Source: PVC group bacterium | Lineage (GTDB): Bacteria > Omnitrophota > Gorgyraeia > B26-G9 | Assembly (NCBI GenBank): GCA_024231215.1 | Contig: JAAEQR010000072.1 | Span: 65,210-129,209, forward strand | Direction of reading: 5' to 3' | Length of the DNA stretch: 64,000 bases | Shown: positions 5,295-61,207 of the stretch, one piece after another | How positions within the stretch are numbered: position 1 is the first letter of the stretch | Layout of the letters: every line of letters starts with the position of its first letter | Notes under the pieces: generated by a model | Seen by the model: only the letters and a program-made list of their open reading frames with translations | Told to the model about the DNA's origin: nothing | The model's database searches: none | Program-made: the position numbers and the translations under genes

Positions 5295-5312
5295 ATGGAG
5301 GAGATAAATAAT

Positions 5313-8830: not shown

Positions 8831-9528
8831 CGGCAATTTTTGTAACCGGAACAGATACCGGAGTAGGAAAAACTATTGTTTGTGGGTTGTTAGGGCGATT
8901 TGCGCAGGATCAGGGGCAGCGGGTGGTTACACAAAAATGGATACAAACCGGAAGTAAGCGTTTTCCTGAGGATATTAGTCGCCATTTACAAATAATGAAA
9001 AGGCATAGACAAGATGTTCGTAAGGAGATTTCTTTTATTTGTCCCTATGTTTTTCCTTTTGCGGCATCACCGCATCTGGCTGCGACGAAGGCTTTAAAAC
9101 GCATTGATAAGAATAAAATAAAACAGGCATTTTGCCGGCTACAGCAGCAGTATGATTGTGTTGTTGTTGAGGGGATTGGCGGTGCGTTAGTTCCTTATAA
9201 TAAAAAAAGATTGGTGATTGATATTGCTAGGGAGTTAAAACTACCGGTATTGATTGTAGTGCAGAATAAACTGGGAGCGATAAATCACACTTTATTAACA
9301 ATTGAAGCTATAAAAAAAAGAAACATGAATCTAATCGGCGTGGTATTTAATACACCAGCCGGGAATGCTCAAAAAATAATTAGAGAGGATAATCGGAAGA
9401 TTATTAATGCTTTAACCGGTATAAAAGTTTTTGGGGAGTTACCATATTCCCAAAATGATGAAGTATTGTATAGTGAGTTTAGGAAATGGGGCAGGAGTAT
9501 TATCAGGAGAAGTAACGATAATGGATAA
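8827..9528 (+). CDS. bioD: dethiobiotin synthetase
   Basis: P-loop MTAIFVTGTDTGVGKT. ATG 8827 overlaps the bioC stop and follows GGGGGGGAAA. The track ORF extends to 8812. Confidence 0.85.
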   Translation: MTAIFVTGTDTGVGKTIVCGLLGRFAQDQGQRVVTQKWIQTGSKRFPEDISRHLQIMKRHRQDVRKEISFICPYVFPFAASPHLAATKALKRIDKNKIKQAFCRLQQQYDCVVVEGIGGALVPYNKKRLVIDIARELKLPVLIVVQNKLGAINHTLLTIEAIKKRNMNLIGVVFNTPAGNAQKIIREDNRKIINALTGIKVFGELPYSQNDEVLYSEFRKWGRSIIRRSNDNG

Positions 9529-16006: not shown

Positions 16007-19000
16007 ATGTTTAAGGCTCCACCTAATATGTTTTTGAGGATTACCTCACTAGCAATCATCCAAATATTTTTAATTACTAATGTCTCTTTTGCCGGAGGCA
16101 ATTTTTTTGCCCAAAATCAGGGGGAGGACTGTCTTTCGCCTGCCTTAGAGATCAATGCCGGAGCATTAAAGCAGGGAATATTAGCTGTTATTGAGGGAGA
16201 TAGTATTCCCAATGATGTTTCCAGCTTGGAAATGACCACATTATTGGAAACGGCACTGAGTAATCTTAGTGATATTGAAAATAATTCAGAGGACTTAAAT
16301 CTTGAAGTCTTGGAACAGTCAATAGATCAAGTAAGACAAATTAATGCGCAAATTAATTATCTTACGGGGGGTAGTGACGAGGGAGTAAATGATCTTTATT
16401 CAAGATTTCTTAGTAGACGTTCAGATTTAGCAAAAAAAATATCCGCAATAGTAATAAATGATGTTGCTAAGTATGCAGGTGTTTTAGAAAAGCTAGTTAG
16501 TCAATCAAAAGAGGATATGCATAAGCATATAGCTATGATGGTTGAGAATGAGAAGATAACTGCTACACAGGGAGATGCAACATTAAAAACAGCTATAAAG
16601 TTTCTTGAAGAATGGTTAGCTCCAGGAAATAACATTCCTCAATATATTATTCAGGGTATATATAAGGGGATGTTAGAAGGTCGTTCAGGAGATCTCTTAT
16701 ATGCGTATGGATTTGGCTGGCGTCAGTTTGGTACAGCTGGAATCAGGAATCAGGCGGTGCAAAGTGAATTCCCAGTTTTACTTCAGAAAGAAGTTGATGA
16801 ATTTGCTGAAGATGTGCATGCTCCAATATTAACTGGTCCAAATATGATTAATACAGTTACTTTATTGCAGCAGGTGGCAGCTTTGGTTGGATTGGTCAAA
16901 GATATTAGAACCAAATTGCAGCAAAAACTCAATAAAGGTATGAGTTTGGCAAATGCGGCTGAGGAATGTGGAATAGCTGAAGAATTTGCACAAAACATGT
17001 TGGATAACACGATTACCGTTACCTATGATAGTCGGTTGAATGGGGAATATTTTGCTCAGTTGCTTGGTGCCGCATTTTTGCAGAAAGATATAAAAGTAAA
17101 CCTTATGGATAGTCCATCCGGAGTACCGGCTGGAGTTTCTATTGCAAAAGGTGCTTCTTTTTTTGGTGAATTGGTTAAAGATTCTCGTTTTGCTGAGTTT
17201 GAACAGATAACAGGATCTATTTTTGGAATTCTTATTTCTGCCAGTCATAGTGAAGCAGAATATAATGGGTTTAAAGCATTTTTGGCGTATCAAAAATCAC
17301 AAGTAGATGCTGATAGTAAAAATATGATAATGGATGCCAGGGGAAATGTTAACTATAGCGATATAAACATGCGATTAGATACAGGATCTAAAGAAGATTT
17401 AAGATTGATATTTAGAAAATATAAGAATAATTTAATCTGGCTGGGTGGGGAGAAGAAAGTAGATGGCAAAGATTATTGTGGTGCCAAATTCGTACCTTTT
17501 TATCCGCTTTATTTTGAATATTTACGTAAAAGATCACCGATTCCTTATGCTGAATTGTCAAGTGATGATATTGAATCGATTAATGCAGCGAAAAAAGATC
17601 TAGGCATCTTATATACTGCTTTTTATGGTGGCGGATCTGTTTCTGCTGCTAATCTACCGGGATTTTTCCAGGAAATGGGATATGATAATGTAGCTATTGT
17701 AGATAAACAAACTAAAGTTATGGATGGGAAATTTCCAGGGCATATAATGCCTGATCCGGGTGTTGTAGAAGGATGGATGAGTAATTTGTATCATTTTCTT
17801 CAGCAGATAGCCGGAGAGGATTTGTCGGATATAGAAAAAGCCGTAGAAATGCTTAATAATAGACAGACGGGTGCTGCTACAGACCCGGATGTTGACCGGG
17901 CAGGTATGATGTTGGATTTAGAACCAGGGCAGCAAGGCAATGTGCGGGATGCTTTTATTGACTGGATAAGTCGGAATTTACAATACAGAGATGATATTTT
18001 GCCTGAAAAAAAACAACATATTATTAATGTTTTAACAAATAATTTAAAAGATAAATTGTTATTAACGGCAAATGATTCCTGGACATTTATGGCATATTAT
18101 AAGCTGCAGATCAGGGAAAAATATGGGTTGCTGGATAAAAACAAGCTTTACATCATTGAAAAATCCCATGTTACTACAGACGGGCTTGAAAATGTTGCCG
18201 CATATTATCGCAAGAAAGGTTATCGTGTGTATGTTGTGGATACATATGTAGGATTTACAGAATTGGCTAAAAAAAGCCGGGATTTGTTTGCTATAGCAAA
18301 AAAGGCATGGAAGATCAAAAAAATGTTAGATAAGTTAGATGAGCCAAATGAGCAAGAACTAAGGTGGGGTGAACTAGAAGAATTGCTGATAGAACTTAAA
18401 CAAGAGAATAAGATTTTAAAGACTAATGTTCCGTATGCTACCGCTGGATTACCCATAGTTGATGAGGCTATAGAGGCATTTGAAAATAGTAATTTTCAAA
18501 AAGCGGAAGAACTCTGGAATAGTATTGCCCATATGGAGAATATTTTGGCTTGTGAGGAAAGTAACGGTTATGGAGAGCTGGGGGAATATATTCCGGAAGA
18601 AGATAAAGTAGTGAATGCCCACATATCTGAAAAGGATGGAGGGTTAGCTTTGTTTGAGTTTTTTGAAATACTCTCTTATGGAAAAGCTGTTTTGGGAAAA
18701 TCGGAATATTCGATGTTTTTAGATATGCTTAGCGAAATAGGGTATTGTACAACAGATAACCAGTTTTTAAAATATCCGGGGCTTAGCGGGGTTCAGGAAA
18801 AAGTGGATGCGATTGAGAGTTTTGAAAAGGTATTTGCAGCTTTAATTCAAAAGGCTATTGATCAGGGCCAGGTAGTTACTTTATTTAATGGAAAGTATAC
18901 AGTAGAAGAAGTTATCGTTTACAGAGATAAAAAATATGATATTACTTATAATGGGTTTCCTGAGGAAGGAATCCGTTTAGTTTTGCGTACACAGAAGGGG

Positions 19001-43667: not shown

Positions 43668-43784
43668 TTAAATGTAAATTTTTTAAACTTTATAATAGTT
43701 TATTTAAAAGAATTATTTTGTAATTATATTTGATTTATCATTGGAGATAGATCACTTATTATATTTAATACTTTTTAGTAAACT

Positions 43785-43814
43785 TGACATATTTATTTGT
43801 CCTAAGGTATAATA
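43785..43814 (+). promoter_or_regulatory. consensus sigma70 promoter TTGACA-18nt-TATAAT upstream of fabG
   Basis: Perfect hexamers at 43785-43790 and 43809-43814. Confidence 0.55.
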
Positions 43815-43893: not shown

Positions 43894-44640
43894 GTGGCTA
43901 ATTTAAAAAATAAAACAGTCATAATCACCGGCGGTTCCAGAGGCATTGGCAAAGCTTGTTGTCTGGCGTTTGCACAGGCAGGTGCTAATGTAATTTTTAC
44001 CTTCAGTAAAAGTAAACAGGAAGCAGACTCTTTAGAAAAACAGATAAATGATATAAATGCAAACTGTTTAGCTATTCAATCCGATATAAAAGACTATGAG
44101 CAATGTCGTGAAGTAGTTGTAAAAAGTATAGAAAAGTTCGAAAAGATTGATATCCTAGTTAATAATGCCGGAATTACTAAAGATAAGGCATTAATGATGA
44201 TGTCTGTAGAAGACTGGAAAGATGTTATTGATACTAATCTGGGTGGAGTTTTTAATATGTCCCGTGCTGTAATTACTACCTTTTTAAAACAAAAAGAGGG
44301 GTGTATTCTTAATATGAGTTCGATTAGTGGAATGGTAGGCATGCCCAGACAGACTAACTATAGCGCGTCTAAAGCAGGTATAATTGGATTTTCTAAAGCA
44401 TTGGCTAAAGAGGTGGCACCTTATAATGTGAGAGTTAATACGGTTTGTCCGGGTTTCGTTGGGACGGACATGGTTGATAATTTGCAGGATAGCGTTAAGG
44501 ATAATATTGCAAAATCTATTCCGGTAAAGAGAATTGGAGATGCCGAAGAAATAGCGGATCTCTGTGTGTTTCTGGCATCGGAAAAAGCACGTTATATTAT
44601 CGGTGAGACGATAAAAATAGACGGTGGTTTGGCAATATGA
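43894..44640 (+). CDS. fabG: 3-oxoacyl-[ACP] reductase
   Basis: SDR: TGGSRGIGKA, NNAGIT, catalytic S-Y-x3-K (YSASKAG), PGFVGTDM. Strong similarity to E. coli FabG throughout. Confidence 0.85.
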   Translation: MANLKNKTVIITGGSRGIGKACCLAFAQAGANVIFTFSKSKQEADSLEKQINDINANCLAIQSDIKDYEQCREVVVKSIEKFEKIDILVNNAGITKDKALMMMSVEDWKDVIDTNLGGVFNMSRAVITTFLKQKEGCILNMSSISGMVGMPRQTNYSASKAGIIGFSKALAKEVAPYNVRVNTVCPGFVGTDMVDNLQDSVKDNIAKSIPVKRIGDAEEIADLCVFLASEKARYIIGETIKIDGGLAI

Positions 44641-44656: not shown

Positions 44657-44920
44657 GTGAATATGGCTGAGACAATTAATTTTGAAGAGGTAAAGACAGA
44701 GGTAAGGAAAATTGTCGCGGAAATTATCGAAACTTCCGAGGAAGAATTGAAAGATGACGCAGAATTTGTGGAAGATCTGGGTGTGGATAGCATGATGGCC
44801 CTGGAGATTGTTGCGGTTATCGAGAAGAAGTTTAAGATAACTATTCCGGAAGAAGAAATCCCGAACATTGGTTCTTTACAGAAGATATATGATATTTTAA
44901 AAAAGAGAATGGCTAGTTGA
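44657..44920 (+). CDS. acyl carrier protein
   Basis: 87 aa, acidic. Phosphopantetheine-attachment site LGVDSMMALEI (DSL-type Ser). Confidence 0.8.
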   Translation: MNMAETINFEEVKTEVRKIVAEIIETSEEELKDDAEFVEDLGVDSMMALEIVAVIEKKFKITIPEEEIPNIGSLQKIYDILKKRMAS

Positions 44921-44931: not shown

Positions 44932-45528
44932 ATGGGATATTGGATAGTCAGAACGATTTTTGTTGTGATCATAAAGGGATTATTTCGTGTTAAAATAGAA
45001 GGAACTGAACATATCCCGAAAGAGAGCAATTATATCATTGTTGCGAATCACGCCAGCTGGCTTGATCCGATGGTTATGGTTGCGGTAATTCCGTATAAAA
45101 TCTATGGCGTTGCGTTACGTTCTTTATTTCGTATAAAGTGGCTGCAAAGAACGTTAAAAGCACTAGAAGCAATTCCGACTGGTAATTCCTCAGGGCAAGC
45201 ACTTTCTTTATTAATGAAAAACAAGACAGTTGGTTTATTTCCGGAAGCAGGATGTAGTCGCGATGGCAAACTGCGCCGATTTAAAAATGGTGCAGCAGTA
45301 TTGGCTTTAAGAAGCGGTCGGCCTGTTGTTCCCTGTGGGATTAGCGGCTCATATGAAGCTATGCCGCGACATTCTCGATTTCCGAAACTCTTTTCTCGGA
45401 TTACTGTAAAAATTGGCAAACCTTTATATTTTCTCAAAGAATTCGATGAGCTTATTGATCCATTTTTACTGGAAGAAAGTACAGATAAGATAAAGACAGC
45501 GATAGAAAGATTGTGTTATGAACGATGA
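44932..45528 (+). CDS. lysophospholipid/1-acylglycerol-3-phosphate acyltransferase family (PlsC-like)
   Basis: HX4D motif VANHASWLDP, FPEAGCSRDG motif III, PVVPCGISG motif IV. Confidence 0.75.
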   Translation: MGYWIVRTIFVVIIKGLFRVKIEGTEHIPKESNYIIVANHASWLDPMVMVAVIPYKIYGVALRSLFRIKWLQRTLKALEAIPTGNSSGQALSLLMKNKTVGLFPEAGCSRDGKLRRFKNGAAVLALRSGRPVVPCGISGSYEAMPRHSRFPKLFSRITVKIGKPLYFLKEFDELIDPFLLEESTDKIKTAIERLCYER

Positions 45529-47086
45529 TTCGCTAATCCAAATACAATTTAGCCGTGTTATTCACGCGAAGAAATGGAAAGTTATTCGTACACTTACCCG
45601 TGTCTGGGAATTACCCCGCCTTGTGCATAGTATCAAAGAAGTAACGGTACTACAAAGAAGCAAGCGTACTCTGAAGACTAAATGGCATATTGAGGTAAAC
45701 AATGTTCCTATTTCCTGGATTGAGGAGGAAACCTTGTGCTTACAAGAGAACCGGATTTGCTTTCGTGCTGTAGAAGGTGATCTAACTAATTTTTCCGGTG
45801 AGTGGAATTTTCAAGATCATCCGGAAGGGACGCAGGTGTCTCTTAGTGCGAAAGTTCGTTTTGATATTCCGGCAATAGGGCAAGTGAGCGGCCCTTTTAT
45901 TCAACAGCTGTTAACCCGAAACTTTGAAGCAATAATGGATGCTTTTGAACGGCGATTGGTTTCTCTTAGATATTCCGGGTATAAGAAAGGAGATACAAGT
46001 CAACTAGCTGGTTTTGGGGTAATTGGCCACTTATATAATTTTAATCATCTAGAAAAATGTTTGAAAATGTTACAGCCTGATTTTGTAATGCCTTCAAAAG
46101 AATTTTTAAGCCAGCTTTTTTATATCACTCCGTCTTTTAAACTATACGATATTCTGAATTTCAAATCAAAAACAGGCCAAAGCGTTAATGGTTGTTTTAT
46201 TGTGGCTACGTTTATCCCTGAAATGATAGACAAAGATATCTGGGCAGTCTATTCGAAAGTTATAAAAGCTTGTAAGGTTGCGGAAAAGCATGGGACGGGT
46301 ATTGTCGCTCTGGGTGGATTTACTTCGATTGTTGGGGAACGTGTTAGTCAGCAGATGAATGATGATGTTGATGTCCCGGTTACTACCGGCAATGCGTTTA
46401 CTGCAGCAATGACTATTGCCGGAATAGAAAAAGCGGTTTGTCGAATGGAAAAGAATTTGAATCAGATGACCTTAACGATTGTGGGAGGGACTGGAGATAT
46501 CGGTAGTGCCTGTGCTCGTGTTTTTGCTAGTCGTGTAAAAAAATTGATTTTAACGGGCCGGACCAAGGGGCATCTGCGTAATCTGCGCAATGAATTAACC
46601 AAAAATGGATCAGCTCGTGTCATAGAGACTACGGACAATCAATCTGCAGTTAAAGAAGCAGATGTTGTTATAGCTGCGGCAAGTGCTTCAGCGTCTATTC
46701 TTGATATTAACTGGTTTAAACCCGGGGCGATTATCTGTGATGTGGGTTATCCTAAAAATGTTTCTTATAGGTTTAACTCCCGGGAGGATATCTTTGTTTT
46801 TTCCGGAGGGCTTACGAAATCCCCGACACAACTTCAATTACCGATCGATGTGGGATTGCCGAGTCCTGAAACTATTTACGGGTGCTTTGCCGAGGCGATT
46901 ATCCTGGCTTTGGAAAAAAGGTATGAACAGTTTAGCTTTGGCCGGGGCAATATCACAGCGGAAAAGATTGAAGAGATTAGGCTGCTAGGGGCAAAACATG
47001 GATTTGAAACAGCTGATTTTTTCTGGGGACACCAGGCAATTGATGAATCAATGATTGAAAGAATTAAAAAAGCGGCGTATGTTTAA
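45518..47086 (+). CDS. SRPBCC (polyketide cyclase/START-like) domain fused to acyl-ACP reductase (cyanobacterial AAR-like, fatty-aldehyde forming)
   Basis: aa 165-522 align motif-for-motif with cyanobacterial acyl-ACP reductase: FGVIGHL, ALGGFTSIVGE, TTGNAFTA, IVGGTGDIGSACARVF (Rossmann), LILTGRT, DVGYPKN, YGCFAEAIILALE, SFGRGNITAEKIEEIRLLGAKHGFE. aa 1-150 form a Bet v1/SRPBCC-like lipid-binding fold region. Confidence 0.75.
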   Translation: MNDDSLIQIQFSRVIHAKKWKVIRTLTRVWELPRLVHSIKEVTVLQRSKRTLKTKWHIEVNNVPISWIEEETLCLQENRICFRAVEGDLTNFSGEWNFQDHPEGTQVSLSAKVRFDIPAIGQVSGPFIQQLLTRNFEAIMDAFERRLVSLRYSGYKKGDTSQLAGFGVIGHLYNFNHLEKCLKMLQPDFVMPSKEFLSQLFYITPSFKLYDILNFKSKTGQSVNGCFIVATFIPEMIDKDIWAVYSKVIKACKVAEKHGTGIVALGGFTSIVGERVSQQMNDDVDVPVTTGNAFTAAMTIAGIEKAVCRMEKNLNQMTLTIVGGTGDIGSACARVFASRVKKLILTGRTKGHLRNLRNELTKNGSARVIETTDNQSAVKEADVVIAAASASASILDINWFKPGAIICDVGYPKNVSYRFNSREDIFVFSGGLTKSPTQLQLPIDVGLPSPETIYGCFAEAIILALEKRYEQFSFGRGNITAEKIEEIRLLGAKHGFETADFFWGHQAIDESMIERIKKAAYV

Positions 47087-49268
47087 TCAATTATTCTCCT
47101 TATCCAATTATTATTTAAATCCGTTTGCAATGCCGGTATTTCTGGTAAGTATAACTATTTTTTTTATTGGATCGGTTGTATTATTCCAGAACAGGCGGTC
47201 GCTTATTAATATATCTTTCTTTTTAAAATGTTTTAGCGCTGGATTTTGGTTATTTACAGCTTCGATTGTGTATTGTTGTTTGAATGAGGCAGTAGCACAT
47301 ACATTGTATAAATATTTTACTTTTCTCGGTGTTGTTAGCATTGGTCCGAGTCTGTACTTTTTCTCCGTATGCTGGTCTAATGTTGCCAAGCGTCAGAAAT
47401 ATATGATCCCGTTGGTATACATAGCTTTTTATGTTCTTTATGGAGTAACTGTAACTACGGATGTATTTATCCTGCCGGGTATGCGGAAATATTTCTGGGG
47501 GTTGTATCCGATTTATGGGCAGGCAATGGGTGTATTCGTGATAATGTTTACGACTACATATTTACTTTCTTTCATGAATACATTTAATGCGTATCACAGG
47601 GAAACAATTCCGATTAAGAAAAGACAAAAAGGAATTATTGCGTTTGTTCTCGCCTTAGGATATCTGGGATCAATTGATTTTATTTCAAAGTTTTTTGATT
47701 ATACGGTTTTTCCTGTCGGATATCTCGCTATTTTTGTCTATATTTCTCTTGTTGCTTATTCAATTGTGCGCTATCGTGCTTTTGATATTGAAACAGTAAT
47801 ACATAAGACAGCTTTATGGGTTTTGTCTTTTTCTTTTGTTGTTATTCCGGTATTTTTTCTTTACGACTGGTTATTGTCGCATATTGAATTGAAGATTATT
47901 AAATTCGCTTTATGGACTGCGACTTTTCTGATTTTTGCTTTATATCTGCGTGTAGTTCAGCCAAAAATAGACCATATATTTCAACGTCGCAGAGCTGATT
48001 TAGAAATTATTTCCAGAATGTTTATCGAAGAACTGGTGCATTTAAAAGGCCTGAATAATCTTTTGCGTTTGATAAAAGATACGATTGCGGATGTTTTGTA
48101 TTCTCAACAGGTAGATATATTTATTTACAATCAGGAGCGAAAGATTTTTGATTTATTTAACCAGATAAGCGAGGCTAAGCAGAGAGCTTTTCTTAAGGAC
48201 GATGACCGGTTTTTAGAATGGCTGACTAAAAACAACAGAATAGCATATAAAGAGTTTATTTATTTAGATCCCCAATACGCGAAAATAAGACAAGCCGCGA
48301 AGAAATATTTTGCGCTTAATGATGCGGTTTTAGTTATTCCTTTAATTGCAGACGGAAAACTGCTTGGGGTGATTAATTTAGGAAAGAAGGCAAACTTAAA
48401 ACGTTACACGGCAATGGAGTTTAATTTTTTGAATACTTTAAAAAACGAATCAGCTATAGCTATTTCTAATTCTCTTTTATATGAGAATATGGAAGATCAA
48501 GTCAGGCAGCGTTCAAAAGAATTGTTGGAAATGCAGAAACAGCTGGTGCAGGCAGAAAAGTTAGCTACTGTCGGTACTTTAGCCGGTGGGGTAGCACATG
48601 AAATAAATAATCCGCTGGCGGCTATATTGACCAATGTGCAAATGCTTTTGCATTCGGCTGAGATTGCCGATCCATCGGATAAGGAGTCGCTTGAACTTAT
48701 TGAAGAGGCGACGCAACGCTGTCGGGTTATTGTGAAGAAACTAATGGTTTATGCCCGGAAGCCATTGCATTCTTCAGAAATCTCCCGGATAAACCTGTCT
48801 GCAGTGGTGAATAATGTTATTTCATTTCTTGAATATCAATTAACTCAGGAGAATATTGCTGTGGTTATTGATATTCAAGACCTTGGATGTGTTATAAAAG
48901 GTAATCAGAATGAACTAGAGCAGGTAGTTACGAATATGATCCTGAACGCAAAAGATGCTATTAAAAAGGTTAAAAGGGGTGGTACAATAGAAATGTCTTT
49001 AGTTACGAAAGGTAGATGGGTTTGCCTTGAGATTAAAGACGAAGGAGAGGGAATACCCCAGGAAATAAAATCAAAGATATTTGATCCATTTTTTACGACT
49101 AAAGATGTCGGGAAAGGGTTAGGGCTTGGGCTTTCTATTTGTCAGTCTATTATCGAACGTCACGATGGGGTGATTACGGTGGATTCAGAGCCGAACAAGG
49201 GGGCGGTTTTCACGATAAATCTGATTAGAGCAGAAGCAACAGATAAAATTACAAAAAATAAATCTTGA
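47055..49268 (+). CDS. sensor histidine kinase with N-terminal multi-TM (7-8 TM) sensor, GAF-like region, HisKA and HATPase_c
   Basis: H-box VAHEINNPLAAIL, N/G boxes (MILNAKDAI; DEGEGIP; GKGLGLGLSI). Paralog of the HK at 53875-56064. Confidence 0.8.
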   Translation: MKELKKRRMFNQLFSLSNYYLNPFAMPVFLVSITIFFIGSVVLFQNRRSLINISFFLKCFSAGFWLFTASIVYCCLNEAVAHTLYKYFTFLGVVSIGPSLYFFSVCWSNVAKRQKYMIPLVYIAFYVLYGVTVTTDVFILPGMRKYFWGLYPIYGQAMGVFVIMFTTTYLLSFMNTFNAYHRETIPIKKRQKGIIAFVLALGYLGSIDFISKFFDYTVFPVGYLAIFVYISLVAYSIVRYRAFDIETVIHKTALWVLSFSFVVIPVFFLYDWLLSHIELKIIKFALWTATFLIFALYLRVVQPKIDHIFQRRRADLEIISRMFIEELVHLKGLNNLLRLIKDTIADVLYSQQVDIFIYNQERKIFDLFNQISEAKQRAFLKDDDRFLEWLTKNNRIAYKEFIYLDPQYAKIRQAAKKYFALNDAVLVIPLIADGKLLGVINLGKKANLKRYTAMEFNFLNTLKNESAIAISNSLLYENMEDQVRQRSKELLEMQKQLVQAEKLATVGTLAGGVAHEINNPLAAILTNVQMLLHSAEIADPSDKESLELIEEATQRCRVIVKKLMVYARKPLHSSEISRINLSAVVNNVISFLEYQLTQENIAVVIDIQDLGCVIKGNQNELEQVVTNMILNAKDAIKKVKRGGTIEMSLVTKGRWVCLEIKDEGEGIPQEIKSKIFDPFFTTKDVGKGLGLGLSICQSIIERHDGVITVDSEPNKGAVFTINLIRAEATDKITKNKS

Positions 49269-49360: not shown

Positions 49361-49747
49361 ATGAAGGGCCGGATTTTAATTATTGATGATGAGGTGATTA
49401 TCACCAAAAGTCTGCAGAAACTTCTCTTAAAACAGAAGTTTGAAGTTATTGTTGCTAATAATGGGACAGAGGCGATGCAGGCAGTACAAAATGAAAAAAT
49501 TGATTTAATTGTCTGTGATGTGATGATTCCGGAAATGGACGGGATTGAGATCATAAAGCTAATAAGAGAATATCTTACCCAACAAGCAAAACCCCTGATC
49601 CCAGAAATATTGATTACCGGTTATGCGGATGAGGAAAAGTATAAGAGTGCGGTAGATTTAAAAGTTGCGGACTACCTGTATAAACCTTTTGATACGAGTG
49701 AATTCCTGGAGGTTATTGAAAAGAATTTAAATGGTGTTAAAAGATAA
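49361..49747 (+). CDS. stand-alone CheY-like response regulator receiver
   Basis: ILIIDDE...DLIVCDVMIPEMDG (phospho-acceptor Asp), conserved T/K positions. RBS GGGAGGAA. Confidence 0.8.
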   Translation: MKGRILIIDDEVIITKSLQKLLLKQKFEVIVANNGTEAMQAVQNEKIDLIVCDVMIPEMDGIEIIKLIREYLTQQAKPLIPEILITGYADEEKYKSAVDLKVADYLYKPFDTSEFLEVIEKNLNGVKR

Positions 49748-49759: not shown

Positions 49760-50992
49760 ATGGAGAAAAAGCGGGTAGTGATTACAGGAATCGGTGTTAT
49801 TGCGCCAAACGGGATGGGCAAAGATGCGTTTTGGCAGGCATTAAAAAAGGGCAAGTCCGGGATTAAAGAGCCAACGCTTATAGATGTAACTTATTTTAAA
49901 AATAAATTAGCTGGTGAATGCAGTGATTTTGATGCGGAAACATTTTTAGGTAAAAAAGGTTTGCGTAATTTAGACCGGAGTACAAAACTTGTTTGCTCTG
50001 CGGCAAAAATGGCTTTAGAGGATGCTTCTTTTGAAATGACTGATGATAATAGTGACGATGTTGGAGTGGTGACCGCAACGACTTTGTCTATCAGTGCGGA
50101 TATTGCTAAGTTCAGCAAAGAAATAGCAGATGAAGGATTTAAGTTTACTAATCCGGCGTTATTTCCTCCGACAACAATGAATTTCCCTTCCAGTCAGATT
50201 TCTATCAGGAATAAAATAAAAGGGTTTAATACCACGGTGGCCTCAGGATATACTGCAGGCTTAGATGCTCTTAAATACGCGGTAAATTTTATAAGCTTAG
50301 GAAGGACAAAAGCAGTATTGGTAGCCGGGGTAGAAAGCCTCGTCTTTTCTAATTACGTAGGGTTTTCTAAGGTTGGGTTTCTGGCCGGAGCAAAAGGTCC
50401 GGAACTATCCTGTCCTTTTGATAGCCGACATAACGGAATTATTCTTGGGGAAGGGACAGCGGCTTTATTAGTTGAATCTGAAGATAGTGCTTTAGAACGC
50501 AATGCGCGGATTTACGGAGAAGTGTTGGGGGTAAAGACATTTTTTGACGCGTATAAGCCGGCAAAATATGACCCTAAGGTTCGAGGTTTAAAACAGAGTA
50601 TGACTAAGGCTTTGGAGAGTTCTGGTTTGAGTGAAGAAGATATTGATTATATTTGTGCTTCGGCAAATTCTGTGGAAGAACAGGATAAATTAGAGACTCT
50701 AGCTATAAAAAATGTATTTGGTCTTTACGCAGAAAATATCCCCGTGAGTTCTATAAAGTCTATGATTGGAGAAAGCATTAGTGCTAATGGAGTACTGCAG
50801 ATCGCGGCAAGCCTAGGGGCAATCAACGAAAGTTTCATTCCTCCGACGATTAATTATGAGAATCCTGATCCGGAGTGTGATTTAGATTATGTGCCCAATA
50901 CTTTCCGAAAACAAACCGTAAATAATGTGTTAATTAATAATTTCGGTCCGGGAGGCAATAACGCAGCAGCAGTGATTGCTAAATATGATTAA
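49760..50992 (+). CDS. ketosynthase-like protein lacking the Cys-His-His triad (chain-length-factor-like KS partner)
   Basis: Thiolase/KAS fold throughout, but the active-site Cys position reads TTVASGYTAG and the His motifs read CASANS / GESISANG. Confidence 0.7.
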   Translation: MEKKRVVITGIGVIAPNGMGKDAFWQALKKGKSGIKEPTLIDVTYFKNKLAGECSDFDAETFLGKKGLRNLDRSTKLVCSAAKMALEDASFEMTDDNSDDVGVVTATTLSISADIAKFSKEIADEGFKFTNPALFPPTTMNFPSSQISIRNKIKGFNTTVASGYTAGLDALKYAVNFISLGRTKAVLVAGVESLVFSNYVGFSKVGFLAGAKGPELSCPFDSRHNGIILGEGTAALLVESEDSALERNARIYGEVLGVKTFFDAYKPAKYDPKVRGLKQSMTKALESSGLSEEDIDYICASANSVEEQDKLETLAIKNVFGLYAENIPVSSIKSMIGESISANGVLQIAASLGAINESFIPPTINYENPDPECDLDYVPNTFRKQTVNNVLINNFGPGGNNAAAVIAKYD

Positions 50993-51021
50993 TGAGAAAG
51001 GTTATTTGAGAAAGGTTATTA

Positions 51022-52230
51022 ATGAATAAAAAACGCAGGGTGGTTGCAACAGGACTTGGAGTGATATCCTCGGTTGGCATTGGCAAAGACGCGTTTTGGA
51101 AAAGTGTAACCAGCGGGACTTCCGGAATTACGGAAATTACTTCAGTTGACACCACAGAGTTTAACTGCCATTACGGTGGAGAAGTTAAAAAATTTAACCC
51201 TGAAGAATTTATTCCCAAAAGAAAAGTTCCTTTTTTAGGTAAAACTTCGCAATTAGCATTATCTGCGGCATCACTTGCATTAAAAGATGCTGGATTTTCT
51301 GAAAAGAAAGTTCCTTCTCAAAAGTTTGGGGTGATTATCGGGACTACTGTTGGCGAAAGACCTTTAGAAGAATTGGTGCAGGCTTGGGCCAGAGGCGGGT
51401 TAAAAGAGGTAGATCGAGGAAGGGTTTTTCAGGCTTCGGTGAATAATATTTCGGCTAATGTTGGGATTCATTTTAAAGCCATGGGGTTGAATCATGTGTT
51501 TCCGACAGCTTGTGCTGCCGGTAATTATTGTATTGGCTATGGGATGGATTTAATCCAGAGCGGTGATTTGAATTTTGTTCTAGTCGGAGGTGCGGAAGCA
51601 TTTTCACGGGTGGCTTATGTCGGATTCCAAAGGCTTTACGCAATGTCTCCGGATAAATGCCGGCCGTTTGATAAAAACAGAAAAGGGATGCAGTTAGGAG
51701 AAGGCTCGGGTGTTTTGCTTTTAGAATCAATGGAGTCTGCTATAAAACGAAAAGCACATATTTACGCGGAAGTTTTAGGCTACGGTCTTTCCTGTGATGC
51801 TTATCATGCTACAGCTCCGGATACACAAGGTATTGCTAAAGCCATGGGCAAGGCTTTAAAAGATGCGGATACATTACCCGAAGATATAGATTATATTTGC
51901 ACACATGGAACCGGTACTCCGATGAACGACAGAATAGAAACTGCGGCAATAAAAGAAGTGTTCAAAGATAAAAGTAAGGATCTTGTGATTAATTCTCTGA
52001 AATCCATGCTTGGGCATACCATGGGTGCGGCTTCGGCAATTGAAGCAGCGGCGTGTTGTATGGCATTGGAAGATGGGATAATTCCTCCGACAATCAACTA
52101 CGATGAATCCGATCCTGAATGTGATTTAGATTGTGTACCGAACAAAGCAAAAAAGAAGAAAATAAAAGTAGCTTTAAATAACGGGTTTGCCTTTGGCGGC
52201 AATAACTGTAGTGTGGTGTTTGGAAAATGA
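51022..52230 (+). CDS. beta-ketoacyl-[ACP] synthase (FabF/FabB-like), catalytically complete
   Basis: Active Cys in PTACAAGNY (codon at 51511-51513), His motifs CTHGTGTP and SMLGHTMGAAS, C-terminal NxFGFGGxN. Confidence 0.8.
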   Translation: MNKKRRVVATGLGVISSVGIGKDAFWKSVTSGTSGITEITSVDTTEFNCHYGGEVKKFNPEEFIPKRKVPFLGKTSQLALSAASLALKDAGFSEKKVPSQKFGVIIGTTVGERPLEELVQAWARGGLKEVDRGRVFQASVNNISANVGIHFKAMGLNHVFPTACAAGNYCIGYGMDLIQSGDLNFVLVGGAEAFSRVAYVGFQRLYAMSPDKCRPFDKNRKGMQLGEGSGVLLLESMESAIKRKAHIYAEVLGYGLSCDAYHATAPDTQGIAKAMGKALKDADTLPEDIDYICTHGTGTPMNDRIETAAIKEVFKDKSKDLVINSLKSMLGHTMGAASAIEAAACCMALEDGIIPPTINYDESDPECDLDCVPNKAKKKKIKVALNNGFAFGGNNCSVVFGK

Positions 52231-53270
52231 GTGAAATAGATCAGAAAATTAGTAGTTTGTTGAAAAAATACAAAGTTTCTGCAAAAGATAAAAAAGTGAT
52301 TGATTCTTTTGTTAAGCAAGCAATAGAGTATATTGCTTGCTTTCAGCAATTTGAGCAAAAAATAAAAGGCAAGCCCTATAAAAAATCACTCCAAAGAATA
52401 TTTGATAAAGAACAGAACAAATTAATTACCACGTTATATACGGTTGATCGAAAAATTAAATCTTCCGGCGTTAAATTTAAAATGAGGGCATTATTTAGAG
52501 AGATAGGAAAAAAATATATTTTCAAATCAGGAATAGCAAAACGCATTTATGATCGTCCCCAAGGTTATCCTGGGGATTTTTTAACATTCGAAATATTCTA
52601 TGACAACAAACCGATATCTAAAGGCGCAGGAGAATATTTAGATGTCTGGGCATTAAGACACGTGCTATCTTTAGCAGCTACGTATAGGAAAAACAACATG
52701 CAGGAGATATTGAAAAAGATCATTAGTGGAAAACGTAAAAAAATAAAGATATTAAACGTAGGTTGTGGTTCGTCCAGGGAAATTCGTGATTTATTGACCG
52801 AAAATATGAATCTTAGCAAAAAGCTTTCGATTATCTGTTTAGATCAGGATAAAGATGCATTAAATTATTCAAAAAAATGTATTAAAGCCTTGGGGAATGA
52901 TATAGATGTTAAGTTTTTGCAGGAGGATATTTTATCTCTAATTGGGGTAAGCAAGAAACAATTATTAATAGGTCGACAGGATATAATTTATAGTTTAGGG
53001 GTTGCAGATTACTTTTTAAAAACAGCTTTGGGTAATTTTATAAAATTTTGTTATAGTAGATTAAATCCAGGAGGAAAACTTATAATTGCTTTTTGTAGTT
53101 CGCATAATCCTAAATTATATGTTCATTTGCGATGGTTTTGCGAATGGAACTTTTTCATTAATGATGCGAAAAAAATACGTGATTTTATAGTTAAAGATTT
53201 GGGGATTAAGAAAACTAAGATTGTGTGGGAAAAGCCAAAACCTGTTTTTCTCGCATTAATGGAGAAGTAG
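52227..53270 (+). CDS. class I SAM-dependent methyltransferase with ~150-aa N-terminal extension
   Basis: ILNVGCGSSREIRDL (motif I), acidic motif II (LDQD), YSLGVADYF. Start overlaps the KS stop (ATGA). Confidence 0.65.
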   Translation: MSEIDQKISSLLKKYKVSAKDKKVIDSFVKQAIEYIACFQQFEQKIKGKPYKKSLQRIFDKEQNKLITTLYTVDRKIKSSGVKFKMRALFREIGKKYIFKSGIAKRIYDRPQGYPGDFLTFEIFYDNKPISKGAGEYLDVWALRHVLSLAATYRKNNMQEILKKIISGKRKKIKILNVGCGSSREIRDLLTENMNLSKKLSIICLDQDKDALNYSKKCIKALGNDIDVKFLQEDILSLIGVSKKQLLIGRQDIIYSLGVADYFLKTALGNFIKFCYSRLNPGGKLIIAFCSSHNPKLYVHLRWFCEWNFFINDAKKIRDFIVKDLGIKKTKIVWEKPKPVFLALMEK

Positions 53271-53271
53271 T

Positions 53272-53865
53272 ATGGATTTTTTATGTATGATAAAAAATAG
53301 AGCAGTTACAAGGAGATATGAGGATAAATCAGTTCCTGTTGAAATTGTTGAAAAGATTATTGATTCAGGTGTATGGTCTTCATCAATACACGGTTTTCAA
53401 CCATGGAAATTTATGGTTATAAATGGTAAGGATAAAATTAAAAAAATATCAGAGATTGTTTCTGATGTGCCAGTAGATATAGCTGGTGATAGTATGGGGA
53501 AATTGGTGAATTTTTCAGCAAGGGTTATTGCCGATGCGCCTTTATTGATTATGGTGTATAATACAAAAGCATTTACTAATGCTGCTGGTAAATTTTTTAA
53601 AATCAATCGGGAATATATAGAAATAGCACAAATGACAGAAATTGAAGGTATCTCCGGAGCGATTCAAAATATGATAATGATGGCGGAAAGCTTAGGAGTT
53701 GGGAGTTGTTGGTTAACTACTCCTTTGTTTTGCGAAAGCAAAATAAACGATTTTTTAAATATTACAGATAGGTTAGTTGCAGTAATAACATTTGGTTACT
53801 CGATGCAGAAAGAAGTTCGTTCTCCCCGAAAGAATGTTGAGACCAAAGTTAATTACGTGCGATAA
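53272..53865 (+). CDS. nitroreductase-family (FMN-dependent NAD(P)H oxidoreductase) protein
   Basis: RAVTRRYEDKSVP N-terminal motif. ~200 aa. Conserved GxxSCW-like region (GVGSCWLT). Confidence 0.6.
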   Translation: MDFLCMIKNRAVTRRYEDKSVPVEIVEKIIDSGVWSSSIHGFQPWKFMVINGKDKIKKISEIVSDVPVDIAGDSMGKLVNFSARVIADAPLLIMVYNTKAFTNAAGKFFKINREYIEIAQMTEIEGISGAIQNMIMMAESLGVGSCWLTTPLFCESKINDFLNITDRLVAVITFGYSMQKEVRSPRKNVETKVNYVR

Positions 53866-53874: not shown

Positions 53875-56064
53875 ATGAATTTATTTACAATATCTTCGGT
53901 ATTAATATTTACTTTTACTTTATTAATAGGTATTATTGCTTATTGGAAAGGTACAGATAAGAAAATAACAAAGGTTTGGGCTTTGTTTTGTCTTTCTATA
54001 TCTATTTGGGGGATGGGCGGGTATATATTTTCATCAACAATATCCAAAGATGTAGCTCTTTTAGGATGGAGGATTACTAATATCGGTGTTATCCTTATCC
54101 CTGTGACTTTTTACCATTTTATCTATCTTTTTCTTCGGCTGCACAAGAAATCACATAGAAGAATTTTGATCGGATCATATGTTCTGGGTAGTCTGTTTTT
54201 AGTATTTAATTTTCTGCCACGGCAGTTTTTTGTAGGGGATGTTAGTTGGGTATTTGGTCAGTTTTATTATGGCGATTGGTGGATATGTAAAAGTCCATTA
54301 TATTTATTACTTTACATCCTTTTTTATTGGGTATTACTTTTATATGTATTTACATTGCTTATCACCCAGTATAATCATTTTAGCGGGAATAAAAGAGAGC
54401 AGTTGAAATATTTTATACTGGCTGCTATAGTTGGATGGGTTGGCCCGACTTTAATGTGGCCGATTTGTTTTAGGATATATATATATCCCTATTCAAATTT
54501 TCTCATAGCGTTCTTTCCTTTTATAATTGCTTATGCCATTATAAAACATCGTCTCATGGATATCAAAATTGCACTTACCCGTGGGGCGATATTATTGATT
54601 GTATACGCGTTTATTGTGGGCGTGCCGTTGTTATTTGTTGCTTCCGGGAGGACTTGGCTGACCGGATTATTTAATGATAAATGGTTTTATCCGCCACTGA
54701 TAATGTATACAGTATTGGCATTGCTGGCACCGTATATATATCTTCGTTTGCAGGCAAAGGCTGAGGCAAAAAGAATGCTTGAACAATATCATTTGCATCA
54801 GTCTCTTAAAGCTGCGTCAAAAACTACAATTGAAGTCCAGAGCGTTAAAAAACTATCCAAAATAATTCCTAGATATTTACTTCGTTTATACGGGAGGTTA
54901 AATAATAAAATAACTCACATTAGTTTGTTTCTTATGGATAAAAACAAAAAGATATATCGGTTGAAATCTTCTGTAGGGGATGAGAAACTGCCCAAGGATC
55001 TGAGCATCTCAGAAAACAGTATTTTAGTAGATTGGTTTACAAAAATAAGCCATGAGGTGGTAGAGCAGGGAGTATTAAAAGCCAAAGAAGTGGAAGTCTT
55101 AGTATATGAAGATATAGATTATTGGATGAACGAAGCTAATGTTTTACGTGCGCCATATCGCGGCTTAAAGAAAATCTTGAGAGACTTAAAAAAAACCATG
55201 GAAAGCTTAAACGCGCAGATAATCCTACCTTCTGTATATCAGCAGGAACTGTTAGGATTTTTGATCTTGGGGGAGAAGACTCCTGATTTATATACGAGAA
55301 ATGATATTGATACGTTTTCTATTCTGGCGAATGACAGTGCTATGGCGTTTAAAGCGGCGCGATTGTTTGAAGACTTGAAAATGACTCAAGCCCAGCTTAT
55401 TCAGTCTGAAAAATTAAACCTTTTAGGCCAGTTGGCATCATCCATGGCCCATGAAATTAATAATCCATTAGCGATCATTTCCGGAAATATCCAGCTTTTA
55501 CTTATGGATGTAAAAGACGAAGGGATTCGTGAATTACTTAAGAAAATAGATGAACAGACCGAAAGAGGGTATAAGATAATCCATAGGCTGCTGAATTTTT
55601 CAAAATTGCCGAAAGAAGATATTAAAGATATTGATATGCATGAGACCATAAATGAAACACTGGAATTGGTCAATCATAAAATTATCCATGGCAATATCAT
55701 GCTGGAAAGACACTTTGATGAGGTAAAGATAATAAAAGGCAATCCTATTCAGATACAAGAGGTTTTACTGAATTTGTTTGTTAATGCCATCCAGGCTATG
55801 CCCGAGGGCGGAGATCTAAAGATATATACCAAACAGCTGGATGGTTTTGTCCAGGTTGTGGTTGAGGATAATGGCAAAGGAATAGAAGCGGAAGATGTAG
55901 CTAATATCTTTGATCCTTTCTATACCAAAGGCAAAAAAGACGGAACCGGCCTTGGATTATTTGTCGCCGACCAGATAATGAAGCTTCATAAAGGTAGTAT
56001 TGAACTAAAAAGCAAGTTAGGCGAAGGTACTACATTTACCCTCAAATTCGCGGAGAAATTGTAA
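53875..56064 (+). CDS. sensor histidine kinase, paralog of 47055-49268 (multi-TM sensor + HisKA + HATPase_c)
   Basis: H-box MAHEINNPLAIIS, N box LLNLFVNAIQAM, G boxes DNGKGI / GTGLGL. Confidence 0.8.
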   Translation: MNLFTISSVLIFTFTLLIGIIAYWKGTDKKITKVWALFCLSISIWGMGGYIFSSTISKDVALLGWRITNIGVILIPVTFYHFIYLFLRLHKKSHRRILIGSYVLGSLFLVFNFLPRQFFVGDVSWVFGQFYYGDWWICKSPLYLLLYILFYWVLLLYVFTLLITQYNHFSGNKREQLKYFILAAIVGWVGPTLMWPICFRIYIYPYSNFLIAFFPFIIAYAIIKHRLMDIKIALTRGAILLIVYAFIVGVPLLFVASGRTWLTGLFNDKWFYPPLIMYTVLALLAPYIYLRLQAKAEAKRMLEQYHLHQSLKAASKTTIEVQSVKKLSKIIPRYLLRLYGRLNNKITHISLFLMDKNKKIYRLKSSVGDEKLPKDLSISENSILVDWFTKISHEVVEQGVLKAKEVEVLVYEDIDYWMNEANVLRAPYRGLKKILRDLKKTMESLNAQIILPSVYQQELLGFLILGEKTPDLYTRNDIDTFSILANDSAMAFKAARLFEDLKMTQAQLIQSEKLNLLGQLASSMAHEINNPLAIISGNIQLLLMDVKDEGIRELLKKIDEQTERGYKIIHRLLNFSKLPKEDIKDIDMHETINETLELVNHKIIHGNIMLERHFDEVKIIKGNPIQIQEVLLNLFVNAIQAMPEGGDLKIYTKQLDGFVQVVVEDNGKGIEAEDVANIFDPFYTKGKKDGTGLGLFVADQIMKLHKGSIELKSKLGEGTTFTLKFAEKL

Positions 56065-59083: not shown

Positions 59084-60139
59084 ATGCTGGAAATTTTAAT
59101 AGTTGATGATGAACAGGAAATTTCAGGGGCGTTAAAGGATTTTTTTACAGCCAAGAGTTATAAGGTATTAGTTGCTAATAATGGGGAAGAAGCACTAAAT
59201 ACTGTACGTAAGCATCGACCGCATCTTGTGTTTTTGGATATTCGCATGCCGAAAATGGATGGCCTTTCAGTCCTACGCAATATTCGTGAATTGGATAAAT
59301 CGATTAAAGTAATTATGGTAACTGCTTTTGGCACAAGAGAGATTGTAAATGAAGCTATGCGTTTGGGTGCAGTTGATTTTATCCGGAAACCGTTTACACT
59401 TGAATATCTCGAACATGATGTTATGGAAAAGGTCAATGTTCAGTTATTTGAAGATCTTCGTAATGAAATAGATGGTAAGGACGAACTTATTGACCAGTTG
59501 CAAAAATTGAATAAAAGGGTTTCCCGTAATTTTTATCAAACAATGCTTTCTCTGGCAACGGCTTTAGAAGGCAGGGATCAGTATACACATGGACATTCAG
59601 AACGGGTTGATTTATATAGTAAGCTGATTGCGGAAGAATTAAAAGATAAAAAAACTACAGCGATAACTAATAAATTCTTAGATGATTTGCATATTGAGTC
59701 CCGGTTACATGATATCGGCAAAATTGCGGTTCCGGATGGTATTTTAAATAAACCTAATCGCTTAACTAACGAAGAATTTAATGAAATCAGAAGACACCCT
59801 GGAGAAAGTGCACGTATCTTAGCACCGCTAGAGGGTATTAAAGACCACATTGATGTTGTTTATAGTCATCATGAACGTGTAGACGGGACGGGTTATCCGG
59901 AGCGGAAAACTAAGGAATCAATACCTTTAAGGGCAAGGATTATTGCGGTTGCCGATGCTTTTGATGCAATGACTTCAGATAGACCGTATCGTAAAGCTAT
60001 GACTCGTAAAGCAGCATTTACGGAACTCGAGAAGAATAAAGACAAACAATTTGATGCAACGGTTGTAGATGCATTTTTCAACGCATATAACAAGAAAAAG
60101 GACAAAAGCAATAAAGAAGCAATGGAGTTAATACTCTAA
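59084..60139 (+). CDS. response regulator receiver + HD-GYP (RpfG-like c-di-GMP phosphodiesterase)
   Basis: Receiver (ILIVDDE...LVFLDIRMPKMDG). HD-GYP (HGHSERV, LHDIGKIAVPD, HHERVDGTGYP). Confidence 0.85.
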   Translation: MLEILIVDDEQEISGALKDFFTAKSYKVLVANNGEEALNTVRKHRPHLVFLDIRMPKMDGLSVLRNIRELDKSIKVIMVTAFGTREIVNEAMRLGAVDFIRKPFTLEYLEHDVMEKVNVQLFEDLRNEIDGKDELIDQLQKLNKRVSRNFYQTMLSLATALEGRDQYTHGHSERVDLYSKLIAEELKDKKTTAITNKFLDDLHIESRLHDIGKIAVPDGILNKPNRLTNEEFNEIRRHPGESARILAPLEGIKDHIDVVYSHHERVDGTGYPERKTKESIPLRARIIAVADAFDAMTSDRPYRKAMTRKAAFTELEKNKDKQFDATVVDAFFNAYNKKKDKSNKEAMELIL

Positions 60140-60157
60140 GGTGTCCGGAGGATTATT

Positions 60158-61207
60158 ATGTTGAAAATTCTAGTAGTGGATGATGAGCCGGAAATAACGC
60201 AGCTTTTGAAAAACTTTTTTCTGCGTAAAAATTATGATGTTTTAACTGCTAATAACGGTAGTACAGCGGTTGAGTTGGTAAAAACAGAAAGGCCGCATCT
60301 TGTGTTTTTAGATATACGTATGCCGCAAATGAACGGCTTGACTGCATTACGTCATATTCGGGCATTGGATAAATCGGTCAAAGTGATTATGGTAACGGCT
60401 TTAGAAGACGAGAAGATGGTGCAGGAAGCAGCGGAATTAGGTGCGGTTGATTATGTGCGAAAGCCATTTAATCTGGATTATTTAGAACGCGATGTTATTG
60501 AAAAAGTAAATGCAAAACTTTTTGTCGATCTGCGTTCTGAATTGGAAGAAAAAAGTAAATTAATTGATCAGCTGGCTAATCAGGTAGAGCAGATCAGTGA
60601 TTTGAATGAAAAATTAAAACGCAATTTTTATCAAACGATAGTATCTTTGGCAACCGCATTGGAAGCCCGGGACCGGTATACACATGGACATTCTGACCGG
60701 GTTGATTTATATTCAAAAGTTATTGCCGAGGAATTAAGGGATTCAAAGCAATGGGAAATAGACGATTTGTTTCTGGATGCTTTACATGTTGAATCGCGGT
60801 TGCATGATATTGGTAAGATTGCTATCCCGGATATGATATTAAACAAACCCGGGGTATTGACCGAAGATGAGTATGCACAGATTAAAAATCATCCGGTACA
60901 AAGTGCAAAGATTTTAACTCCCTTAGAAGATCTTAAGAAAAATATTGAAGTAATTAGACATCATCATGAGCGTGTTGACGGCAGGGGATATCCTGATGGG
61001 TTAAAGCATGACGAAATCCCGGCCAGAGCTAGGATTATTGCGATTGCTGATGCTTTTGATGCGATGACTTCGGATCGGCCGTATCGTAAAGCCATGTCGA
61101 TTGCAGAGGCCACAGATCAGCTGGAAAAAGGTAAAGGCGCTCAGTTTGATGCGGAAGTAGTGGATGCATTTAAGAATGCTATAGCACAGGGGAAAATACC
61201 AAACTAA
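60158..61207 (+). CDS. response regulator receiver + HD-GYP, tandem paralog of 59084-60139
   Basis: Same architecture and ~65-70% identical by eye (ILVVDDE...LVFLDIRMPQMNG; LHDIGKIAIPD; HHERVDGRGYP). Confidence 0.85.
   Translation: MLKILVVDDEPEITQLLKNFFLRKNYDVLTANNGSTAVELVKTERPHLVFLDIRMPQMNGLTALRHIRALDKSVKVIMVTALEDEKMVQEAAELGAVDYVRKPFNLDYLERDVIEKVNAKLFVDLRSELEEKSKLIDQLANQVEQISDLNEKLKRNFYQTIVSLATALEARDRYTHGHSDRVDLYSKVIAEELRDSKQWEIDDLFLDALHVESRLHDIGKIAIPDMILNKPGVLTEDEYAQIKNHPVQSAKILTPLEDLKKNIEVIRHHHERVDGRGYPDGLKHDEIPARARIIAIADAFDAMTSDRPYRKAMSIAEATDQLEKGKGAQFDAEVVDAFKNAIAQGKIPN

Follow-up and report, generated by a model that had tools for sequence, protein, structure and literature searches.

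The stretch of DNA analysed here, called the window in what follows, comprises 64,000 nucleotides (64 kb) of contig JAAEQR010000072.1, from an uncultured bacterium of the phylum Omnitrophota. In it lie two neighboring genes that encode ketosynthases (KS) of the FabF fold, here named KS1 and KS2 (Table 1). The N- and C-terminal ketoacyl-synt domains of Pfam span both proteins from end to end. A preliminary description, made from the sequence alone, had presented them as a heterodimer-like pair, in which the protein encoded first had lost its catalytic residues and resembled a chain length factor (CLF), while the second retained them. The evidence below favors a more specific identification: with a probability of roughly three in four, KS1 and KS2 are the Omnitrophota counterpart of amxFabFmut and amxFabF2, two proteins that form a complex in anammox bacteria.

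The two proteins and their relatives

Catalytic positions were located by means of an 11-sequence MAFFT alignment, which included FabF of Bacillus subtilis, Iga11, and both chains of PDB entry 9S5H, and by two larger alignments. KS2 has a complete set: Cys164, His295, Lys327, His332, and the gate phenylalanine, Phe391. That it keeps Cys164 and both histidines had been claimed beforehand and is borne out. In KS1, no cysteine stands at the canonical position, which is occupied instead by Tyr164 (motif SGYTAG). Glu338 (GESISA) takes the place of the second histidine and Pro397 that of the gate phenylalanine; the lysine (Lys333) is kept. The preliminary description was therefore right that KS1 had lost its triad, with Cys changed to Tyr and the second His to Glu, but not that the first His had become Asn: the alignments place Ser301 (CASANS) in that column, with Asn303 two residues further on.

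Neither protein reaches the cutoff (493.75 bits) of TIGR03150, the NCBIfam equivalog model of fabF, KS1 scoring 335.3 bits and KS2 433.2 bits. KS2 does exceed the cutoff of the looser subfamily model PRK07314 (418.5 vs 387). The AlphaFold2 model of the KS1 monomer has a confident core (predicted template modeling score, pTM, 0.88), and its top match in a Foldseek search was B. subtilis FabF, with a TM-score of 0.92, which confirms the fold and nothing more. The structure set used for Foldseek ran to April 2026 and was without 9S5H.

A protein that has lost every residue of the Cys-His-His triad might be thought a functionless duplicate of KS2 in the course of decay, but the chance of this is close to nil. 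The reading frame of KS1 is intact and of full length, a ribosome-binding-like sequence (AAGGA) precedes it, and the predicted core is confident, as noted above. Moreover, a scan in which a single genome stood for each species, based on a 7-sequence alignment, found relatives of KS1 in 302 species genomes. The best 80 of the 302 are mostly from Omnitrophota, with about 15 from Nitrospirota/Thermodesulfovibrionia, one from Desantisbacteria, and some labelled Planctomycetales, which group with Omnitrophota sequences in the tree. The closest relatives of KS1 and KS2 (59-78% identity) are labelled Candidatus Omnitrophota, and Candidatus Poribacteria is the label on one of the ten sequence clusters that were looked up. 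The anammox homologues of amxFabFmut form a separate, tight group, with mutual identities of at least 64%.

Residues and neighborhoods were counted in 84 related loci from other genomes. All 84 dead proteins show the pattern [Y/F/H]-x-K-[E/D], that is, an aromatic residue (Tyr or Phe, in one case His) for Cys, the lysine kept, and Glu or Asp for the second His, so the replacement residues are themselves conserved. Most have Phe where KS1 has Tyr, and 82 of the 84 have Pro at the gate position. Since the same kinds of replacement recur in all 84 relatives, and since the mean pairwise identity of the dead proteins (58%) is near that of their active partners (62%), the catalytic losses of KS1 are not the result of chance decay.

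The dead and active proteins are inherited together. Their distance matrices are strongly correlated (Mantel r = 0.89, a value matched by none of 2000 permutations), and their subtrees have mirrored topologies. Among the 150 nearest sequence clusters (at 50% identity), 46 consist of proteins of about 750-870 aa in which an active KS domain is fused to a dead one, and another 44 of stand-alone dead KS proteins with the pattern of Lys and Glu or Asp.

Comparison with the anammox pair

Among sequences in the PDB, KS1 is best matched by 9s5h_C, the amxFabFmut of Brocadia (E 3.2e-107, 362 bits; the runner-up scores 260 bits), and KS2 by 9s5h_B, amxFabF2 (E 2.4e-135, 455 bits), followed by Iga11, a KS of ishigamide synthesis (6kxd_A; E 7e-103, 348 bits). 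A BLAST cross-table against the genes of Brocadia and Scalindua paired the subunits in the same way, KS1 being 45% and KS2 52% identical to their counterparts. The 9S5H proteins are those of Brocadia fulgida, encoded in the putative ladderane 'Cluster I', and the pair, termed amxFabFhet (PDB 9S5H/9S5I), corresponds to the genes kuste3605/kuste3606 (Granatino et al., bioRxiv 2026, doi 10.64898/2026.05.19.726425). The dead triad of Kuste3606 had already been tabulated by Rattray et al. (2009, PMC2649909), as had a second anammox dead KS, Kuste2805, with the pattern F-N-K-E-F. Kuste2805 may be an equally close relative.

The anammox subunits are inactive when expressed singly; they are active on co-expression only and co-purify (10.64898/2026.05.19.726425). 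The complex decarboxylates malonyl-acyl carrier protein (ACP) and forms acetoacetyl-ACP, and in the crystal it is a heterodimer with one functional tunnel. According to the same preprint, that tunnel is lined by Phe135 and Val139 of amxFabFmut, which shift the preference for acyl length in crosslinking assays. A preference for C6-C8 is reported for the anammox enzymes.

The residues that correspond to Phe135, Thr138, and Val139 of Brocadia amxFabFmut are Phe, Thr, and Thr in KS1. Among its 84 dead relatives, Phe135 is invariant, Thr138 is found in 79, and position 139 is always Val or Thr. The same columns hold Val, Met, and Ile in B. subtilis FabF, and the KS2 family has Ile or Val at 135. 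The earlier notion of a heterodimer-like pair thus gains support from specific homology to the subunits of 9S5H together with conserved tunnel residues.

The likeness to amxFabFhet goes further. In both cases, two FabF-fold paralogues are encoded in one operon, only one of them with Cys-His-His, and the dead subunit keeps Lys, Phe135, and Thr138 and has Glu for the second His. In both, an ACP of the amxACP type is part of the operon. Relatives of the window locus, but not the window itself, add an amxFabZ-like dehydratase and a phytoene-desaturase-like (PDH-like) oxidase. There are also differences. The host belongs to the Omnitrophota rather than to the anammox planctomycetes. Where the anammox proteins have Val or Thr in place of Cys and Arg at the gate, KS1 carries Tyr and Pro, respectively. 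The operon in the window has FabG, PlsC, an acyl-ACP-reductase fusion, two-component sensors, a methyltransferase, and a nitroreductase in addition, and it lacks the B12-dependent radical S-adenosylmethionine (radical-SAM) gene of Cluster I. Finally, the dead gene is upstream in the window and downstream in anammox bacteria. The pair is real and belongs to a kind that was described in 2009 and characterized in 2026; because it fits the mechanism just demonstrated in anammox bacteria, it does not represent a novel type of system. What is new is its occurrence in Omnitrophota, with the dead gene first, a Tyr plug, and no radical-SAM enzyme. A search of the literature for work tying Omnitrophota to dead/active pairs or to ladderane-type clusters brought up nothing relevant.

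Gene order had been singled out early as unusual, and comparison agrees. Wherever a related locus has both genes, which is so in 56 loci, the dead one lies 5' of the active one, and in 10 of those 56, the window included, the two are immediately adjacent. The active gene precedes the dead one in the two anammox loci that were read, those of Brocadia and Scalindua (L085 6723-9242, L086 6727-9239), and the active unit likewise leads in all 46 natural fusions of active and dead KS. The preprint disagrees with those two anammox loci, in that it puts amxFabFmut upstream of amxFabF2 (10.64898/2026.05.19.726425). The gap of 29 nt reported between KS1 and KS2 is correct. The unit duplicated within it, TGAGAAAGGTTATT, is 14 nt long and contains a ribosome-binding-like core, GAAAGG, so that two such cores precede the start codon of KS2.

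Two other kinds of ketosynthase were compared. The KS-alpha/KS-beta enzymes of type II polyketide synthases (PKS), such as that for actinorhodin (PDB 1TQY), likewise combine an active KS with an inactive paralogue, which helps to build the acyl or polyketide tunnel and affects the length of the chain, but the relationship is far more distant (1tqy_B vs KS1, E 6e-47), and the order is KS then CLF rather than dead then active. There is also no typical set of aromatase, cyclase, and ketoreductase in the window, the sole domain of the Polyketide_cyc type being the SRPBCC domain of the reductase fusion. Tyr164 of KS1 sets it apart in addition from the CLFs of the actinorhodin type, which have Gln at the Cys position. 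Canonical homodimeric FabF (ketoacyl-ACP synthase II; B. subtilis, PDB 4LS5) shares fold and length with both proteins and the full catalytic set with KS2, but both proteins fall under the TIGR03150 cutoff and KS1 is catalytically dead by alignment.

If KS1 and KS2 work as their anammox homologues do, KS2 would possess the sole Cys-His-His site and would carry out both the decarboxylation of malonyl-ACP and the Claisen condensation, on acyl chains brought by the amxACP-like carrier protein of the operon. KS1 would be noncatalytic, its site plugged by an aromatic residue for Cys, Glu for the second His, and Pro for the gate Phe. Its role would be that of an obligate structural partner, which completes the dimer and lends a helix-loop-helix (Phe135-x-x-Thr-Thr) to the wall of the acyl tunnel of KS2, thereby perhaps stabilizing KS2 and shaping the chain lengths accepted. 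Chain condensation in a dedicated type II pathway resembling that of fatty acids would then be the task of the pair. What the sequences themselves show is homology, a residue pattern, conservation, synteny, and co-inheritance; the formation of a heterodimer, the shaping of the tunnel, and a lipid product are inferred from the homologue.

Several observations weigh against this identification. In a neighbor-joining tree, KS1 and KS2 are indeed sister to their anammox counterparts, but with weak bootstrap values of 42 and 57. The charge asymmetry reported for the heterodimer, which disfavors homodimers, was not reproduced when net charges of the helix-loop-helix and partner helix were calculated from sequence; since the Brocadia reference pair itself failed to show it, this criterion is uninformative. 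(Over the whole protein, the active subunit is the more basic in 36 of 45 pairs.) The AlphaFold2 monomers of both KS1 and KS2 have low confidence at the segments of the dimer interface. In KS1, the helix-loop-helix (residues 109-138) has a predicted local distance difference test (pLDDT) score below 50, much as this segment is disordered in the crystal of the amxFabFmut homodimer. For KS2, the model is of lower quality as a whole (mean pLDDT 71.7), with weak interface segments too, so the contrast in disorder between the two is meaningless. The 64-kb window has no dehydratase, enoyl reductase, or other ketosynthase, hence the pathway is incomplete locally. Lastly, in 28 of the 84 related loci, the dead KS occurs without an active KS in the stretch of DNA that was fetched.

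This last finding might suggest that KS1 acts independently of KS2, as a homodimeric pseudoenzyme that binds acyl-ACP or has a regulatory role, or as the partner of another ketosynthase, for which the third, divergent active KS (424-445 aa) of about 15 loci would be a candidate. The amxFabFmut of Scalindua, expressed alone, did crystallize as a homodimer, and polyethylene glycol was found bound in the dead subunit's own tunnel (10.64898/2026.05.19.726425). In that homodimer, however, the helix-loop-helix is disordered, and activity was confined to the co-expressed heterodimer. The covariation of the distances of KS1 and KS2 described above, the invariance of Phe135, which faces the KS2 tunnel, and the existence of natural fusions of active and dead KS all speak for a partnership of the two, and an independent KS1 is very improbable.

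The operon in the window

The pair is the center of a series of genes on the same strand (Table 1).

Table 1. Positions in the window of KS1, KS2, and nearby features
Feature	Positions	Strand	Remarks
Promoter-like site, sigma-70-like (TTGACA-18-TATAAT)	43784-43813	+	12/12 match to consensus; 80 nt 5' of fabG
FabG-type 3-oxoacyl-ACP reductase	43894-44640	+	TIGR01830, 300.8 bits (cutoff 297.75)
ACP, amxACP-like	44657-44920	+	Pfam PP-binding
PlsC-type acyltransferase	44932-45528	+	PF01553; recurrent in Omnitrophota loci, 5' of the KS pair
Fusion of SRPBCC/START-like and acyl-ACP-reductase-like domains	45518-47086	+	Pfam Polyketide_cyc and TIGR04058
Histidine kinase, N-terminal seven-transmembrane (7TM) domain (HisKA_7TM)	47055-49268	+	Domain search
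Lone response-regulator receiver domain	49361-49747	+	Domain search; ends 12 nt before KS1
KS1	49760-50992	+	410 aa; FabF-fold ketosynthase, catalytically dead by alignment, CLF-like
KS1-KS2 spacer, 29 nt	50993-51021	+	Perfect tandem duplication, read from sequence
KS2	51022-52230	+	402 aa; ketosynthase, catalytic set complete by alignment
SAM-dependent methyltransferase	52227-53270	+	Start overlaps KS2 stop codon; in only 2 related loci
Nitroreductase-family flavoprotein	53272-53865	+	In 10 related loci
Second 7TM histidine kinase	53875-56064	+	Domain search, synteny

The operon possibly starts at the promoter-like site upstream of fabG. The total number of such sites in the window equals that expected from shuffled sequence, so the site stands out by its match to the consensus alone. 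The ACP has as its top three PDB matches the anammox amxACPs 7auf, 9s5i_E, and 7qv0_D (E about 1e-14, as against 1e-11 for canonical ACPs), and it is 50-55% identical to the amxACPs of Brocadia and Scalindua. The reductase domain of the fusion protein is of the cyanobacterial type (PDB 6jzq, a long-chain acyl-ACP reductase, E 1.5e-40). The fusion occurs in 14 related loci, and its pairing with an adjoining PlsC gene is repeated in loci from Omnitrophota, 5' of the KS pair. This pairing is reminiscent of bacterial ether-lipid synthesis, with its combination of a reductase and an acyltransferase. Genes resembling those for monogalactosyldiacylglycerol (MGDG) synthase and LpxL, both concerned with lipids, are found near the KS pair as well.

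In many loci from Omnitrophota, a kinase and a receiver gene lie directly 5' of the dead KS, and this conserved placement suggests that regulation through membrane sensing is coupled to the lipid operon. Two receiver-HD-GYP genes (59084-61207) come after the kinases that bracket the pair. The operon, which encodes FabG, the ACP, PlsC, and the reductase fusion and is flanked by two-component sensors, probably feeds the synthesis of membrane lipids.

Related loci and the likely pathway

The 84 related loci share a recurrent set of partners. FabG is present in 75, a dehydratase of the FabZ/ApeP type in 69, and the ACP and KS2 in 56 each. The best PDB matches of the dehydratase are amxFabZ structures. 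A PDH-like amine oxidase accompanies the dead KS in 25 loci, and a short-chain dehydrogenase/reductase of the 3beta-hydroxysteroid dehydrogenase/NAD_binding_4 type in 24.

In one subclade, the contexts are those of housekeeping genes. In 20 loci (L039, L043, L044, L049, L050, L057, and about 14 others), ribD and ribE are immediately followed by the dead KS, FabG, and FabZ, in a neighborhood that includes nusB and ligA. No ACP or active KS lies within 10 kb of these, and the dead subunit is thus encoded at a distance from the protein presumed to be its partner. In nine others (L040, L045, L047, L048, L051, L055, L062, L067, L070), genes resembling lpd and lipB, for dihydrolipoamide dehydrogenase and octanoyltransferase, immediately precede the dead KS, at a distance of 1.3-3.5 kb. 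These nine are from an Omnitrophota subclade of the Phe-Asn-Lys-Glu-Pro type, with the order dead KS, FabG, ACP, dehydratase, KS2. The lpd-like and lipB-like genes were recognized by reading the sequences and not by a profile search; if they are correctly identified, the neighborhood hints at a link to the supply of octanoyl-ACP and lipoate, LipB being a user of octanoyl-ACP.

PlsC, the reductase fusion, the MGDG-synthase-like and LpxL-like genes, and the housekeeping contexts point to a primary acyl-ACP or lipid pathway, which is the reading tentatively favored here. More speculatively, the link to lipB, the constriction at the invariant Phe135, and the C6-C8 preference of the anammox enzymes hint at a supply of medium-chain acyl-ACP.

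The heterodimer might instead serve a highly reducing, polyene-type pathway akin to a type II PKS, of the ishigamide or aryl-polyene kind, and would then yield a specialized unsaturated lipid or pigment in place of ordinary saturated fatty acids. Systems of this sort, Iga11/Iga12 (PDB 6KXD) and ApeO/ApeC (PMC8358021), likewise combine a KS/CLF with a FabG-like ketoreductase, a FabZ-like dehydratase, and reduced chains bound to ACP. Iga11 is the second-best PDB match of KS2, and KS2 groups in the tree with Iga11 and with the fused KS/dead-KS proteins. A polyene-type product has to be considered, because the conserved core consists of ketoreductase, KS/CLF, ACP, and dehydratase, with no recognizable enoyl reductase of the FabI/FabK type, and because of the PDH-like oxidase found in some loci. 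The methyltransferase and nitroreductase 3' of the pair would also be in keeping with a specialized product. KS1 is much nearer to FabF-type proteins than to the CLFs Iga12 and ApeC (Iga12 is not among its best 60 PDB matches), and both the content of the clusters and their phylogenetic distribution differ from those of the Iga and Ape systems. On the other hand, neither the window nor the annotated loci show any of the hallmarks of aryl-polyene clusters, namely an adenylating enzyme or ammonia-lyase, LolA/MMPL export, and a thioesterase. In addition, the dead KS of about 30 genomes belongs to a housekeeping operon, alongside either riboflavin genes and nusB or lpd and lipB; genes of lipid synthesis are close by, and the family is very widespread in the phylum. 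A polyene-type pathway is accordingly considered unlikely.

In about 15 of the related loci there is a third KS with an intact triad, which usually comes directly after KS2 (L009, L013, L017, L018, L021-L023, L025-L028, L034-L036), though in L027 and L035 a gap of 1.3-1.6 kb intervenes. It is not a canonical FabF, because its best PDB match reaches only E 1e-38. This arrangement recalls the two-KS logic of aryl-polyene clusters. In one lineage (L003 11229-11705, and likewise L004 and L019), an open reading frame of 158 aa without a Pfam match lies between the dead and the active KS.

In Brocadia and Scalindua, the order of Cluster I is ACP, FabZ, FabF2, FabFmut, PDH, B12 radical-SAM. Five of these six types of gene are found in loci outside the anammox bacteria, so the core of Cluster I is not confined to producers of ladderanes. 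The one missing is the radical-SAM gene: the window has no match to a cobalamin-dependent radical-SAM enzyme, nor has it a PDH-like oxidase gene, and across the 84 loci there were weak matches to the former in only six, at no more than 81 bits. In one Omnitrophota locus (L065), two genes resembling B12-binding radical-SAM enzymes (4502-5917 and 8498-9940) lie 5' of the dead KS; their similarity to the Cluster I enzyme is weak (no more than 81 bits).

A tentative extension of this argument, which is perhaps somewhat less likely to be right than wrong, is that the core of Cluster I (amxACP, amxFabZ, FabF2, FabFmut, and the PDH-like oxidase) extends beyond ladderane producers and was derived from, or exchanged with, a widespread fatty acid synthase module of the KS/CLF type. 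In Omnitrophota and Thermodesulfovibrionia the module would provide a primary lipid or acyl-ACP pathway, wired to lipB in some lineages; only the B12 radical-SAM enzyme would be specific to anammox bacteria, and fatty acid synthases that contain a CLF would be common in uncultured phyla. Should this prove true, the hunt for the step that forms ladderanes would narrow to the radical-SAM enzyme, the heterodimer could be studied in organisms other than anammox bacteria, and a KS/CLF enzyme may run fatty acid synthesis in a large uncultured phylum. The presence of the Cluster I core outside ladderane producers is in this respect of more interest than the pair itself.

Two other parts of the window may be mentioned. 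A biotin operon at 5289-10858 comprises bioB, bioF, a bioH-like hydrolase, a bioC-like methyltransferase, a probable bioD, and bioA; the BioC/BioH route to biotin makes use of the elongation cycles of fatty acid synthase. Further on, a single open reading frame of 1997 aa occupies 16007-22000 of the + strand.

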